The notes under the pieces: generated by a model
Seen by the model: only the letters and a program-made list of their open reading frames with translations
Told to the model about the DNA's origin: nothing
Database searches by the model: none
Made by a program: the position numbers and the translations under genes
Shown: piece by piece, positions 3,320-7,443 of the stretch
How the letters are laid out: every line of letters starts with the position of its first letter
Position numbering within the stretch: the stretch's first letter is position 1
From: an uncultured Thermodesulfobacteriota bacterium
GTDB lineage: Bacteria; Desulfobacterota; BSN033; WVXP01
Direction of reading: 5' to 3'
Length of the DNA stretch: 64,000 bases
NCBI GenBank assembly: GCA_964348095.1
Contig: CAYGBK010000085.1
Span: 920 to 64,919 of the forward strand

Positions 3320-3898
3320 TCAAGAGGATTCCTCGGCGAGATAGTCGAGGGAAAGTATCTTGAGGCTGTCGTTCTCTCTAATCAGAATCCAGCGGATGTC
3401 CCCCGTCCAGCTCTTCTTCTTCCCTCTTTTTTTCAATGTTTGATCCAGTTCATAACGGGCACGGGCTTCCACTGAGTTTTGATAGATCTCGATTCCGAGA
3501 TCGTCAAGTTCATAAGAAAGTTCCCGGCTTCTTTCGAAGAAATCCGCATACATTTTCCCGATAGAATCGAACCGGTCCCGGCCATTCTGAGTGGCTTCCG
3601 ATGAGAATAGCGACAGGAAGCCATTTACATCCCTCTTGTTGTAGTGCTCTGTGTAATCAGCAAAGAATTGCTTTAACTCTTCCTCTGTTGCGAAATCTGA
3701 AACGGGTGTCTCCAATAGTGTTTCAACTGGCCCAGTTACCTGATTTCTATACTCCTTGGGGATCCAATCGTACCTTGTCGTGAAATTGGCATTCCCCGTT
3801 TCATCGATCCATCTGTAAACTTCCTGAGAATAGGCGGGGAAAGACAAAACAAGTGATAGGATGATTGCCAAAAGAAATACTCGTTGTCTCACTTCCAT
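3320..3898 (-). CDS. Secreted protein: signal peptide, DUF4124-like N-terminus and a conserved ~125-aa C-terminal domain (copy 1 of 3)
   Basis: Signal peptide MEVRQRVFLLAIILSLVLSFPAYS, then DUF4124-like YRWIDETGNANFT. The C-terminal block EEELKQFFADYTEHYNKRDVNGFLSLFS...IRENDSLKILSLDY is paralogous to the C-termini of the next two genes. Confidence 0.6.
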   Translation of the reverse strand: MEVRQRVFLLAIILSLVLSFPAYSQEVYRWIDETGNANFTTRYDWIPKEYRNQVTGPVETLLETPVSDFATEEELKQFFADYTEHYNKRDVNGFLSLFSSEATQNGRDRFDSIGKMYADFFERSRELSYELDDLGIEIYQNSVEARARYELDQTLKKRGKKKSWTGDIRWILIRENDSLKILSLDYLAEESS

Positions 3899-3956
3899 AG
3901 GGCCCTCCTTGTTTAGCGTCTGAAGTTTCTTTTTGATTCTCCCATGTAGCCTGCGG

Positions 3957-5354
3957 CTATGGCCTTCTTCGGCCTCCCCCTTCCTCTCGCCGTGGAGGAG
4001 TAGACTTTTGGGTTTGATAATCGAGGAAGCGTATTTTCAGCGTGTCGTTCTCTCTGGCCAGAATCCAACTGATCTCCCCGCTCCAGACCCTTTTTTTATT
4101 GTGTTTCTTCAATACCTGGTCCACTACATAACGGGCTTCAACAACTGCCACATTCTCGAAGAAGACGTCAGAAATCATAGCCTCCTGGTAAATTCCAATC
4201 CTCATATCCTGAAGACTATAATTGAGCTCGCGACTCTGGTGGTAAAAATCCGAATAGATTCTCGCAATTTCAGAGAACCCATGTTTCCGGTTCTGAAGAG
4301 CACTCAAGGAGAAAAACGACAGGAAACCGTTTATGTCCTTCCGGCTGTAACGCTCCGCGTAGTCCACAAAGAACTCCCTGACCTCTTCCTCAGTGATAAT
4401 CTGCAAAGTTGATAGAACCGCACTGCTTTTTTCTTCATCCTCAATCGAGGAGTCAGAGGCGATCAGGGGAGGTGCCACGTCTGGCTCTTCAGATCGGCTC
4501 GGCGTGCTCATACCGGTCCGGGCAACGGGCTCCCGACTTCTGCTCTCCGATCCCCGTCCGATTTCCTGGTTCAGGGTCTTCTTAGTCGTTTCCGCCATCT
4601 TTGTGTCAGGCCCGGGCGTCAAATGCCCCGTGTCCTTTTGATCCGAACGTTGCTGATTCTTTGGTGGCCCTTTGCGAGTCTCGAGTTCCTCTCGCCTCTC
4701 AGCATCACTCAACCTCTCGATCTCTTTCTGTCTCGTGATCGTCTTCGGAGGGGGTATTTTCTGAACATCGTCCGGATTCTTCAGTCTGTCCAATCGGCTA
4801 TGTTCGAGGCCGGCTTGCTGGACCGTTGTGAGTTGGTCGAGCTCTGGAATAGGCGACGGGGGCGTAGCGGGGTTTTGGGCATCGGGTCCTTTGGTCTCAT
4901 CGATCTTTTTTCCAACGGCGAGCGTCTCGAGAGGGGTGACCGCATCAGAGACAGCTTTTTCGTGCAGAGGAGAGGCCGACGGAAGGCTGACCCTAGGAGT
5001 GATTGGACGAATTGCAGATGAAATCAGTGGATTCCCCACAGGACGAGACAATCGCAGATACATTCCACCGAGGACGCCCACAAGGCTGACGATGATGAAT
5101 ATGAGGAATAACCTTCGGAGGTAAAAACTCCTTCTCCGCCGCCGATACACCCTTTCGAGGTCGTACTTGATTCGGGTGTTGGGATGTTTCAAAACCTGAT
5201 AGGCTTCATTGATCTCTTTTGATTTCTCGTCTTCCGGCCCTCCCCGAACTGGCCCGTCGGGATGGAATCTGCGCATCAATTCGATCCACCGAGTGCGAAT
5301 ATCTTTCCCAGATGCGTTTTTTCGTACGCCAAGAATCTTGTAATAGTCCTTCAT
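3957..5354 (-). CDS. J-domain (DnaJ-like) protein with a TM helix, a Pro/Ser/Glu-rich linker and the same conserved C-terminal domain (copy 2 of 3)
   Basis: N-terminus MKDYYKILGVRKNASGKDIRTRWIELMRRFHPD is a canonical J-domain with HPD. The segment FYLRRLFLIFIIVSLVGVLGGMYL is hydrophobic. The C-terminus EEEVREFFVDYAERYSRKDINGFLSFFS...ARENDTLKIRFLDY matches copies 1 and 3. Confidence 0.65.
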   Translation of the reverse strand: MKDYYKILGVRKNASGKDIRTRWIELMRRFHPDGPVRGGPEDEKSKEINEAYQVLKHPNTRIKYDLERVYRRRRRSFYLRRLFLIFIIVSLVGVLGGMYLRLSRPVGNPLISSAIRPITPRVSLPSASPLHEKAVSDAVTPLETLAVGKKIDETKGPDAQNPATPPSPIPELDQLTTVQQAGLEHSRLDRLKNPDDVQKIPPPKTITRQKEIERLSDAERREELETRKGPPKNQQRSDQKDTGHLTPGPDTKMAETTKKTLNQEIGRGSESRSREPVARTGMSTPSRSEEPDVAPPLIASDSSIEDEEKSSAVLSTLQIITEEEVREFFVDYAERYSRKDINGFLSFFSLSALQNRKHGFSEIARIYSDFYHQSRELNYSLQDMRIGIYQEAMISDVFFENVAVVEARYVVDQVLKKHNKKRVWSGEISWILARENDTLKIRFLDYQTQKSTPPRREEGGGRRRP

Positions 5355-5376
5355 TGTTCTTCTAGGTCTTCGCCTC

Positions 5377-7443
5377 TTACCGGGACCCCTGGGGTTGATA
5401 ATCGAGGGAGAGTATCACCAACTCATCATTTTCTCTAATCAGAGCCCACTGGATGGTGCCCTTGAAGACCCTCTTTTTTCTTCCCCTTTTTGGGATTTGA
5501 TCTAGCTGGTATCGCGCCCTGGCCACAATCGAATTCTGATAGATCTCGATCTTCATATCAGCCAGTTGGTACTGAAGCCTTCGGCTTTGTTCGAAGAAAC
5601 CGGAATATGTCTTCTTAATTTCATGGAGTCTGTCTTTTCCATTTTGAACTGCTCGAGACGAGAATAAGGAGATGAAACCATTCGAATCCATCCGGATGTA
5701 TCGATCCAAATAGTCGGCAAAGAACTCCTTGACCTCTTCTTCTGTGGCGAGAAGAGTTAGCGGAGGCCGCTCGGCCTCCTTTTTCAATGCAGCCTGTTCC
5801 GTTTGGGCCTGAGATTCTATTTTCCCCTTCTCGGGTTCCATTGAGCCGCTTATGGAGACCGGGGTTTCCCCTCCAATGTCACCAGTTTCTCGGGTGACCG
5901 TTCTTAATGACTCGTCAGGGATGGTCGGCGTCTCCCTTTTCTTGGCTTCGAATGTCTGTTCGGTTACGGTCTCAAATTCTCCTTCTTTTTCGGGAACAAT
6001 CGGTGTTTCCTCTACCCCACGCCGCGGCGCCTGGTTGGTATGTTTTTCTTCCACGTCAGTCGGCAGACCGTTATCAGCCACCTTTCCGCTCTCGGGAAGC
6101 CGTATCACCTGGCCCACCTGAATCTGGCCGAGATCGTCAATCCCAGGGTTTAGTTCCCTCACAGCGTCAAGCAGCTGCTGATCCATCCGGCCAAACTCCT
6201 TTAGGATTATGCTATCGATAGTATCCCCCGCCTCTACAGTTACGGCGGTTGTTTTTGGCACTTTGAAGCCTTGAGGACTGGAGAGCTCTTCCAATTCAGA
6301 CACGGGGGTGGTCCGGTCGGCTTGGGAATCCATCCTTGACGGTGCCCCTGAAATGGCAGACTCCTCGATCAGATCACCTTTAACCGGGACGGCCTCCTTG
6401 CCCTTTTCCGTCGCCACCAAATCAGGGGCTAGCCTGACCGTTTGCTTTAGAGGAGACGATTCTAAGGGCGCCCGATCCCCAGATGAATACGGGCCGGCGG
6501 TGAGGAAGTAGCCCACACCGCCCGCCGCAAGAGCGAGGAAAATGACAATCAAGATCAGAGAAGGGTACGGCAGGTAACGCCCTGCGAGAATAACCCCCCG
6601 TCTCTCCCCTATGAATCTCCCTCTACCGCGAGCCCGATCCATTCCAAGATCAGCGATACATGCTGTTACGGTTTTTTCCTCGATAATTGGAGTCTTTGTT
6701 TTGTACCCCCTCAATAAGGATTTGTGGCATATATGGTTGATAATACCGGGTATTCCCCGTGAGTACTTGTAAATCTTCTGGATAGCCTCTTCAGCAAAGC
6801 AATTGAGGTTTTCTGCCCCTGCTACCCTTATTCTTGTCCGGATATAATCCCTGGTTTCCTCGCAGTCTAACGGGCGCAGATAATGCCGGATGCTAATTCG
6901 CTGCTTCAGCTGCCGCAAGTCGCTTCGATCCAAGAGATCGTCAAGCCCAGGCTGTCCTACCAGGAATACTTGGAGAAGCTTCTGGCTTGACGTCTCAAGA
7001 TTGTTCAACAACCTGATTTCTTCAAACAAGGCGATATCGAGATTGTGCGCTTCATCAAAAATCAATGCCGTCGTTCGGCCATTCTGATGAGACTCCAGAA
7101 GGAAATCTTGAAGCTTTTTGAGGTGGTCGAGTCTAGAGTCACTCTTCGTCTGAAGGCCGAAGTAGTGACACACATGCTTGAGGAAACCTGTGGTGGAGAG
7201 TTTCGGGTTAGGAAAATAGGCAACCTGACAATTCCTTTCCAACTCATCGAGAAAAGCTCTGACGGTCGTCGTCTTGCCAATCCCTAATTCTCCTGACAAA
7301 ACTGCGAAGCCCGTTTTCTCCCTAAGACCGTACACCAGCAAGGCTAGAGCTTCCTGATGTTTGCGACTGTGATAGAAAAACCTGGGATCAGGTGCAATGT
7401 CAAACGGCTTTTCCTTAAAACCAAAATAGGCTTCGTACATGGC
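5377..7443 (-). CDS. ExeA/GspA-like AAA ATPase (the type found as a secretion ATPase in PEP-CTERM/EPS loci) with a TM segment, a LysM-like motif and the same conserved C-terminal domain (copy 3 of 3)
   Basis: N-terminus after the internal Met reads MYEAYFGFKEKPFDIAPDPRFFYHS. Walker A is GELGIGKTT; Walker B/DEAH-like is LIFDEAHNL. The LysM-like stretch is GDTIDSIILKEF...VIRLP. The C-terminus TEEEVKEFFADYLDRYIRMDSNGFISLFS...IRENDELVILSLDY matches copies 1 and 2. Start moved from 7524 to 7443. Confidence 0.7.
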   Translation of the reverse strand, partial: AMYEAYFGFKEKPFDIAPDPRFFYHSRKHQEALALLVYGLREKTGFAVLSGELGIGKTTTVRAFLDELERNCQVAYFPNPKLSTTGFLKHVCHYFGLQTKSDSRLDHLKKLQDFLLESHQNGRTTALIFDEAHNLDIALFEEIRLLNNLETSSQKLLQVFLVGQPGLDDLLDRSDLRQLKQRISIRHYLRPLDCEETRDYIRTRIRVAGAENLNCFAEEAIQKIYKYSRGIPGIINHICHKSLLRGYKTKTPIIEEKTVTACIADLGMDRARGRGRFIGERRGVILAGRYLPYPSLILIVIFLALAAGGVGYFLTAGPYSSGDRAPLESSPLKQTVRLAPDLVATEKGKEAVPVKGDLIEESAISGAPSRMDSQADRTTPVSELEELSSPQGFKVPKTTAVTVEAGDTIDSIILKEFGRMDQQLLDAVRELNPGIDDLGQIQVGQVIRLPESGKVADNGLPTDVEEKHTNQAPRRGVEETPIVPEKEGEFETVTEQTFEAKKRETPTIPDESLRTVTRETGDIGGETPVSISGSMEPEKGKIESQAQTEQAALKKEAERPPLTLLATEEEVKEFFADYLDRYIRMDSNGFISLFSSRAVQNGKDRLHEIKKTYSGFFEQSRRLQYQLADMKIEIYQNSIVARARYQLDQIPKRGRKKRVFKGTIQWALIRENDELVILSLDYQPQGSR

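Follow-up and report, generated by a model that had tools for sequence, protein, structure and literature searches.

The locus and its three paralogous proteins

The stretch of DNA analysed here (the window) comprises 64,000 nucleotides of contig CAYGBK010000085.1 (positions 920 to 64,919, assembly GCA_964348095.1) from an uncultured, sulfate-reducer-type Thermodesulfobacteriota bacterium. According to the list of open reading frames (ORFs) and to Pfam and NCBIfam scans, a tightly spaced exopolysaccharide (EPS) operon spans positions 1-13,133 on its minus strand. Three adjacent genes of this Wza/Wzc/CpsB/Wzy operon share one paralogous C-terminal domain, which we refer to as NTF2-like, on different N-terminal modules. 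This arrangement had been proposed in an earlier reading made without database searches (the sequence-only reading) and is confirmed by our analysis; the coordinates and the consensus given there were also correct, except that the end coordinate of the ATPase gene, 7443, was 3 nt off (7440). In detail, the three genes and their modules (lengths in amino acids, aa; TM, transmembrane) are:

3320-3898, minus strand: secreted DUF4124-NTF2 protein, 192 aa
3827-3898, minus strand: signal peptide of this protein (ending FPAYS/QE), N-terminal hydrophobic segment at residues 3-21
3731-3826, minus strand: DUF4124 domain (PF13511), Pfam 25.8 bits against a cut-off of 22
3323-3691, minus strand: NTF2-like copy 1, residues 70-192
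3957-5354, minus strand: J-domain-TM-NTF2 protein, 465 aa
5151-5354, minus strand: J-domain, residues 1-68, HPD motif at 31-33, predicted cytoplasmic; Pfam DnaJ (PF00226) 58.2 bits against 27.8
5055-5111, minus strand: single TM helix, residues 82-100, after the Arg-rich segment RRRRRSFYLRR (hydropathy scan)
4398-5054, minus strand: Pro/Ser/Glu/Thr-rich linker, residues 101-319, presumably disordered and periplasmic (composition)
4008-4397, minus strand: NTF2-like copy 2, residues 320-449 (alignment; phmmer E=3e-35 against copy 1)
5377-7440, minus strand: ExeA-like AAA_22 ATPase-LysM-like-NTF2 protein, 687 aa
6637-7440, minus strand: ExeA/GspA-like AAA_22 ATPase domain, predicted cytoplasmic; Pfam AAA_22 85.3 bits
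6502-6558, minus strand: single TM helix, residues 295-313 of the 687-aa form, Arg-rich on its N-side (hydropathy and sequence)
6094-6243, minus strand: LysM-like (Phage_tail_X-like, PF05489) putative peptidoglycan-binding domain, Pfam 20.6 bits against a cut-off of 22
5380-5748, minus strand: NTF2-like copy 3, residues 565-687, 60% identical to copy 1 (phmmer E=1e-43)

Copy 2 contains a 10-aa insertion between two strands and is followed by a short basic tail that extends to 3960. The ATPase domain shows a Walker A (GELGIGKT) and a Walker B motif (IFDEAH), and the N-terminal 267 residues of the protein align end-to-end with TIGR03015, with a score of 274.7 bits that lies below the cut-off of 324.5. 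Two starts are possible for the ATPase gene, namely the ATG at 7524, which yields 715 aa (the call in a Logan assembly), and the ATG at 7440, which yields 687 aa (the NCBI call), the latter being favoured because TIGR03015 matches the 715-aa form only from residue 29 onwards. A hydropathy scan places a TM helix at the same position in the related proteins P0091, P0108, P0122 and P0132, and relatives of the ATPase carry LysM, SPOR, PG_binding_1 or OmpA domains where the window protein has its LysM-like part.

Because of the signal peptide, the single TM helices and the Arg clusters on their N-side, all three NTF2-like copies as well as the LysM-like and DUF4124 parts are predicted to lie in the periplasm, with J-domain and AAA domain in the cytoplasm; in the J protein it is the Arg-rich segment in front of the TM helix that points to an N-in topology. 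The same layout is found throughout the family, as exactly one TM helix was detected by hydropathy between J-domain and NTF2-like domain in all 89 J+NTF2 proteins scanned, with an intact HPD motif in 80 of these and a J-to-NTF2 spacing of 78 to 345 aa (median 222).

Paralogy of the C-terminal blocks

The three C-terminal blocks align over 123 columns, 55 of which are invariant, and two of them are 53% and 60% identical to the copy in the DUF4124 protein. The sequence-only reading had recognised this homology but had put the identity too low, at 40-50% over about 120 aa. BLOSUM62 local alignment scores between the blocks range from 319 to 376, compared with 31 +/- 5.5 for 200 shuffles, and phmmer E-values between the paralogues range from 1e-35 to 1e-43. 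An artefact of low complexity or composition, which had been named as an objection to the sequence-only reading, is contradicted by these numbers. Altogether, a chance or low-complexity similarity or a mis-assembly has a negligible probability: the scores lie more than 50 standard deviations above those of the shuffles, a confident globular fold is predicted for the domain, the same arrangement recurs on two independent contigs (L003 and L098), and a nucleotide identity of 62-64% between the copies excludes an assembly duplication and shows that the duplications are old. The three blocks are old paralogues, neither a compositional nor an assembly artefact.

About 20 positions are at least 90% conserved in every paralogue class, many of them Tyr, Asp, Glu, Ser, Asn, Gln or Trp and including E5, Y13, D21, S30, N36, Y48, S55, Y70, Q84, W101, E106 and Y117. 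In a neighbour-joining tree, calculated without support values, the common small copy forms an old and divergent clade, and the DUF4124, ATPase and J copies of the window lineage cluster together, a grouping that agrees with a lineage-specific duplication from a J-type copy.

Fold and superfamily of the domain

An AlphaFold2 (AF2) model of the domain, built from an alignment of 18 sequences, reached a predicted local distance difference test score (pLDDT) of 93.5 and a predicted template modelling score (pTM) of 0.85. It shows a cone-shaped alpha+beta structure in which three N-terminal helices lie on a curved antiparallel sheet, as is characteristic of the NTF2-like superfamily, so that the predicted fold is unmistakably NTF2-like. 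Profile comparison gave far less. Copy 1 has sub-threshold matches to DUF4440 (19.6 bits against 25.2) and SnoaL_2 (18.3 bits against 27) in Pfam, copies 2 and 3 have no Pfam match at E<=0.01, and no NCBIfam model matches the domain in any copy. A profile of the three domains returned noise only from the PDB sequences (best E=0.21, sorting nexin-25), which is why the fold is established via structure prediction. For relatives of the domain the precomputed family matches are likewise weak or faint, and those in public databases are automatically labelled 'ketosteroid isomerase-like protein'. In Pfam the superfamily is represented by SnoaL_2/3/4, DUF4440 and CaMKII_AD, and the window copy scores below every gathering cut-off. 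The domain thus is a new, unmodelled family inside the well-known NTF2-like superfamily and not a new fold. The sequence-only reading would have been undermined if the domain had proved to be known, widespread and functionally annotated; the superfamily is indeed known and widespread, but it does not bring an annotated function with it.

The top structural neighbours include ketosteroid isomerase (KSI), scytalone dehydratase, LinA, limonene epoxide hydrolase and SnoaL-type cyclases. This raises the possibility that the domain is itself a periplasmic isomerase-, dehydratase- or epoxide-hydrolase-like enzyme which modifies the polysaccharide or its lipid carrier, and the invariant or near-invariant Tyr13, Tyr17, Asp21, Glu106 and Asp116 do recall catalytic sets of Tyr and Asp residues. 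On the other hand, the sequence identity to any enzyme is only 7-21%, no Pfam enzyme family is matched above threshold, and it is hard to see why one operon should encode an enzyme three times over, each time on a long disordered tether to a J-domain or an ATPase. Moreover, we know of no NTF2-like enzyme that acts on glycans. We therefore give an enzymatic role little credence.

Operon layout and synteny

The remaining genes of the operon within the window are:

235-1821, minus strand: Wzy_C-type polymerase/ligase, end of the conserved cluster within the window (Pfam Wzy_C 68 bits; synteny)
1880-2275, minus strand: 23S_rRNA_IVP four-helix-bundle gene
2437-3294, minus strand: CpsB/CapC-type PHP tyrosine phosphatase, the next gene after the last NTF2-like gene (Pfam CpsB_CapC 172 bits; synteny)
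7543-8787, minus strand: TPR + CBM_4_9 protein, N-terminally anchored, between Wzc and the trio (Pfam; synteny)
8811-11147, minus strand: Wzc-type bacterial tyrosine kinase (BY-kinase)/co-polymerase with a C-terminal Tyr cluster (EYGYYYYRYRYYYG) (Pfam Wzz, GNVR, AAA_31; NCBIfam TIGR01007 196.6 bits)
11107-12270, minus strand: Wza/OPX polysaccharide export protein (Pfam Poly_export and two SLBB domains)
12267-13133, minus strand: 'unk288', first gene of the conserved cluster, conserved at the same position in most loci

With an OPX protein (Wza), a PCP-2a BY-kinase with Tyr cluster (Wzc), a phosphatase and a Wzy-type polymerase, four hallmarks of a Wzx/Wzy-dependent EPS or capsular polysaccharide cluster are present. 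The trio lies between the CpsB phosphatase and the Wzc kinase, as had been stated, with the TPR-CBM gene also in between. The operon leaves the window at its left end after Wzy_C; in the related locus L002 the downstream genes include a NusG-like gene, ManC and an epimerase.

An exhaustive profile search over 1.84 billion representatives (50%-identity clusters) yielded 194 clusters at E<1e-30, 363 at E<1e-10 and 977 at E<1e-3. J+NTF2 is the most frequent architecture of the collected sequences (90), followed by the NTF2-like domain only (67, short secreted forms and N-terminally truncated fragments), DUF4124+NTF2 (6), AAA+NTF2 (5), LysM+NTF2 (2) and tandem NTF2-NTF2 (2). For the secreted tandem proteins (P0021 family) a dedicated search found at least 590 90%-identity clusters at E<=1e-10, annotated merely as 'ketosteroid isomerase-like' or hypothetical; where the context could be seen (L009, L013, L093, L101), the tandem gene follows the J gene.

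Synteny was analysed by domain scans of 11 genome loci, 80 metagenome loci and several additional look-ups, the 11 genome loci all belonging to metagenome-assembled genomes (MAGs) of Deltaproteobacteria, Thermodesulfobacteriota, Syntrophobacterales or Syntrophorhabdus. The recurring order is unk288, Wza, Wzc, TPR-CBM, J-NTF2, none to two further NTF2-like domains, CpsB, in some cases the IVP gene, and Wzy_C. Directly upstream of the J gene a TPR-CBM or ATPase gene was found in all 35 evaluable loci, and CpsB follows the last NTF2-like gene in 31 of 33. The ATPase-LysM-NTF2 gene is rare, being present in the window (identical to L001), in L003, where parts of it are 72-77% identical to that of the window, and in L098 (P0174, 6109-8441; 50% identical), in each case right after TPR-CBM. 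In L098 it is directly followed by CpsB, there is neither a J gene nor a small NTF2-like gene, and its NTF2-like domain has the 10-aa insertion typical of J-type copies; the ATPase fusion there occupies the slot of the J gene.

The J-TM-NTF2 gene is hence the constant core of the cluster, whereas the small NTF2-like protein is optional and the ATPase was added by fusion only rarely, in a lineage-specific way, so that the trio as such is not a conserved unit.

The variable copy number bears on the main rival explanation, namely that the domains are a self-association module through which the paralogues hetero-oligomerise in the periplasm and thereby bring J protein, ATPase and soluble proteins into one complex, with no need of an external ligand, after the model of NTF2, KSI or SnoaL dimers or of the CaMKII hub. 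Dimers or larger oligomers are typical of NTF2-like proteins, and CaMKII hub structures are also among the structural matches; duplication beside the J gene has occurred repeatedly, with one extra NTF2-like domain in 24 loci and two in 4; the duplicates arise from the J-type copy in the neighbour-joining tree; and the very common natural tandem fusions are a Rosetta-stone-type hint. However, the J-NTF2 gene stands without an extra domain in the remaining 5 of the 33 loci, and the NTF2 domain of Bd1075 is a monomeric targeting module. In addition, when a natural tandem protein was modelled with AF2 (alignment of 50 sequences), both domains were predicted with a pLDDT of about 85-95, but the 30-aa linker was disordered and the pTM was 0.48; the model contains no confident docking, which weakens the case for hetero-oligomerisation. 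Finally, the invariant residues are the same and not complementary across the paralogue classes, and a common ligand or target fits this conservation better than complementary interfaces do. We consider self-association unlikely, although it deserves to be taken seriously.

Several further loci came up in the course of the synteny analysis. A second ATPase-TM-linker-NTF2 protein, P0091 (781 aa, 40% identical; L097, 3004-5349), is encoded in the same MAG (GCA_012974985.1, JABAOH010016680.1; also L096) in a different glycan locus with an epimerase, a glycosyltransferase, CapK_C, an ATP-sulfurylase, an APS kinase and an HDOD-GAF protein, and an unk288 paralogue lies directly upstream of it. Orphan NTF2-like genes outside EPS clusters (L010 2274-5244, L064 3516-4547, L012 507-1076, L004 3409-4035) encode forms without a J-domain, some with a TM anchor and a long linker and others just secreted; one of them adjoins a gene for a PilZ+DUF2914 protein and another a gene for a TPR protein, and these four contexts have no common theme.

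A proposed common periplasmic address

The sequence-only reading had suggested a common docking or ligand-binding module, and this remains the best reading of the domain, one that we hold tentatively and with a confidence that falls a little short of even: the NTF2-like domain would be a periplasmic address, that is, a module which binds through its pocket to one target in the envelope. Candidate targets are the nascent polysaccharide, peptidoglycan or some periplasmic component of the Wza-Wzc-TPR/CBM machine. The address would be carried primarily by the bitopic J protein, in which a cytoplasmic J-domain with its HPD motif is connected through one TM helix and a long disordered periplasmic tether to the NTF2-like domain. 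Through its J-domain the protein might then bring DnaK from the cytoplasm to the membrane site that the NTF2-like domain marks, and there DnaK could remodel components of the cluster, e.g. the Wzc kinase, whose oligomer cycles with CpsB.

In the lineage of the window the NTF2-like domain would have been duplicated, with one copy placed onto an ExeA-like ATPase with a LysM-like part and another onto a secreted DUF4124 protein, resulting in the same address on three effectors. Seen in this way, TM helix, tether and NTF2-like domain may form a constant chassis whose cytoplasmic end varies between a J-domain, an AAA ATPase or, in the secreted forms, none. Both cytoplasmic options would amount to ATP-driven remodelling, either by Hsp70 through the J-domain or by the intrinsic AAA ATPase, and binding by the NTF2-like domain would position DnaK recruitment and the putatively peptidoglycan-binding ATPase at the site of the export machine.

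Alternatively, the J protein could be a co-chaperone dedicated to folding or inserting the large membrane proteins of the cluster (Wzc and Wzy), the NTF2-like domain being a passive periplasmic cap and the paralogues having unrelated roles. The conserved J-domain with its HPD motif, the tight operon linkage to Wzc and Wzy and the example of DjlA, which shows that membrane tethering alone can direct DnaK, speak for it. Yet the NTF2-like domain is the best conserved part of the J protein, whereas the linker is highly variable, and in L098 the J module has been exchanged for the ATPase while TM helix and NTF2-like domain were kept, suggesting that the NTF2-like end is the indispensable part. A mere co-chaperone therefore appears improbable to us.

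Several points weigh against the periplasmic address. The binding of a ligand or partner by the NTF2-like domain is inferred, as is the recruitment of DnaK to Wzc, and the 'conserved polar pocket' is suggested by sequence periodicity only. The domain is no closer to Csd6 and Bd1075 than to dozens of other NTF2-like proteins, no DnaK gene lies within the window, and the canonical HPD motif is missing in 9 of the 89 J-domains. The synteny loci all come from MAGs or metagenomes and were picked with narrow short-peptide patterns, which biases them to close relatives, and since the counts include near-duplicate contigs they describe this clade and not the whole family. Lastly, the orphan NTF2-like copies (L004, L010, L012, L064) lie in unrelated neighbourhoods.

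A more specific version of the periplasmic address would make the J-TM-NTF2 protein a trans-envelope coupler. Here the pocket of the NTF2-like domain would sense the polymer or the state of Wza-Wzc, and DnaK recruited by the J-domain would disassemble or reset the Wzc octamer in an auxilin-like manner, in step with CpsB, with the ExeA-like ATPase as an alternative, self-contained energy module (as it replaces the J module in L098). We regard this version as speculative and improbable.

Comparison with known systems

The closest functional precedent for a periplasmic address are the periplasmic LD-carboxypeptidases Bd1075, Csd6 and Pgp2, in which the NTF2 domain is likewise periplasmic and C-terminal on a multidomain protein. 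Bd1075 is targeted by way of its NTF2 pocket, and the NTF2 domain of Pgp2 binds peptidoglycan fragments. The identity of the window domain to these precedents is only about 10-18%, and whereas they fuse NTF2 to a YkuD-type catalytic domain, the window proteins fuse it to a J-domain, an ExeA-like ATPase or DUF4124, in an EPS cluster.

For the J protein, the nearest parallel is DjlA of E. coli, a membrane J-protein that drives capsule induction via DnaK (PMC11709261), the capsule being colanic acid and the route a Rcs relay. Both proteins are bitopic in the inner membrane, with a cytoplasmic J-domain and a link to capsule or EPS. DjlA gains its specificity from membrane tethering; from N- to C-terminus it has a TM helix, a TerB-like domain and the J-domain, hardly any of the protein lies in the periplasm, and it is not encoded in the cps operon. 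The window protein, by contrast, has its J-domain at the N-terminus, followed by the large periplasmic tether and the NTF2-like domain, and has no TerB domain. It matches the DjlA model NF006948 in the J-domain only (20.8 bits, cut-off 162) and so is not a DjlA. Nor is it a J-domain protein of type I or II (with G/F region, zinc-finger and C-terminal substrate-binding domains), as the DnaJ equivalog models match only its first 63-66 residues, with about 55 bits against cut-offs above 300.

Links between Hsp70 and polysaccharide export are also found in Nostoc punctiforme, in which DnaK1 and DnaJ3 (with GrpE) are required for hormogonium polysaccharide secretion (PMC9239167), and in B. subtilis, in which DnaK serves as substrate for the BY-kinase PtkA as well as for the phosphatase PtpZ (PMC4835898) and is thus tied to a BY-kinase/phosphatase pair. 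The J proteins of these two organisms are soluble, lie outside the export operon and have no NTF2 domain, so that their relation to the window locus is by analogy only.

The ATPase shares with ExeA/GspA and the TIGR03015 proteins an AAA_22 domain followed by one TM helix, after which it has a putative periplasmic domain of the peptidoglycan-binding type with a LysM-like match below cut-off; ExeA binds peptidoglycan and aids the assembly of an outer-membrane channel (PMC4098917). The periplasmic end is LysM-like plus NTF2-like in the window protein and PG_binding_1 in ExeA/GspA, and the gene lies inside a Wza/Wzc/Wzy operon; neither GspB/ExeB nor a type II secretion secretin was found near it among the 40 window ORFs scanned. 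An assignment to the PEP-CTERM/exosortase systems was considered and rejected, given the TIGR03015 score below cut-off and the lack of an exosortase in the window ORFs scanned and in the syntenic loci. Single-chain fusions of J, AAA_22 and PG_binding_1 (P0212 and P0226; L099 8404-10479, L100 3317-5392, each followed by an unannotated 256-aa gene) were likewise discarded as a Rosetta stone between J-domain and ExeA, as their 'J' lacks the HPD motif (RFDSAD, KFDSSE) and their context is a housekeeping one.

A J-domain protein in an EPS locus does not belong to the described Wzx/Wzy, PEP-CTERM or GspA systems, in line with what the sequence-only reading had assumed, and our search of the open-access literature brought up no account of an EPS cluster with a J-domain/NTF2 protein. 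The cluster is therefore a Wzx/Wzy-type EPS cluster with an undescribed J-TM-NTF2 accessory component, of which the window holds a rare three-paralogue elaboration.

Other features of the locus

For unk288, with which the cluster begins, neither Pfam nor NCBIfam has a matching family. The gene encodes a signal peptide, a beta-rich body and a C-terminal TM helix followed by poly-Asp and a hydrophobic tail; the C-terminus reads …AADDDDDDIIIITSP, and that of the paralogue in L097 (1934-2731) reads …AEDDDDDVVVVSP. The combination of TM helix, poly-Asp and short hydrophobic tail may be a sorting-signal-like C-terminus. Upstream of unk288 the window contains an aminotransferase gene in the opposite orientation (13505-14872), and in L002 (787-3235) and L101 (362-2682) a PAS-HisKA histidine kinase and a stand-alone response regulator are encoded directly upstream of it.

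The 23S_rRNA_IVP/TIGR02436 gene is found between TPR-CBM and J in L009, L013, L089, L093 and L101, and after CpsB and after Wzy_C in L006, L023 and L052, a shifting position in otherwise collinear clusters that looks as though the gene had been inserted independently.

Heptanucleotide tandem repeats are concentrated at the left end of the window, with four arrays in the first 3.1 kb compared with one in the other approximately 50 kb. GATTTCG is repeated 10.4 times at 2965-3037 inside the CpsB gene, in frame and encoding the insert 'RSEFRNPRSEIPNPNSKIQNPKSEIRI'; L003 has fewer of these units. GTGATTG and 21-nt-unit arrays lie inside Wzy_C (1317-1353 and 1494-1567), ATTAGTG occurs 7.7 times between Wzy_C and the IVP gene (1823-1884), and a further repeat array was found at 15647-15707. 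These arrays could be slipped-strand contingency repeats or elements like short tandemly repeated repetitive (STRR) sequences. The odd N-termini of the metagenome homologues P0006-P0012 resemble translated heptamer repeats.

Outside the operon, a 353-aa ORF (59915-60976) matches Pfam NAL1_N and Nal1_C (198 bits), which are named after the plant protease NARROW LEAF 1, and is followed by an Amidase_3 gene.

Conclusion

The gene linkage described here is striking, the fold is ordinary and the function is one that we infer throughout; as all examples come from uncultured Desulfobacterota-type MAGs, the practical weight of the finding is limited for the time being. Models of Wzx/Wzy-dependent export centre on the cycling of the Wzc octamer via autophosphorylation and a phosphatase, and to our knowledge the current ones include neither a chaperone nor an extra ATPase. 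An HPD-bearing membrane J-protein with a periplasmic NTF2-like domain, fixed between the genes for the kinase and TPR-CBM protein on one side and the phosphatase on the other, implies an undescribed accessory step in export, in a cluster type that belongs to a widespread environmental lineage. If the trans-envelope coupler were true, an Hsp70-driven step would be added to the assembly and disassembly cycle of Wzc. Independently of this, the at least 194 50%-identity clusters, together with hundreds of tandem 'ketosteroid isomerase-like' relatives, constitute a concrete family to study, and the domain may join those of Bd1075, Csd6 and Pgp2 as another NTF2-like address module in the periplasm.

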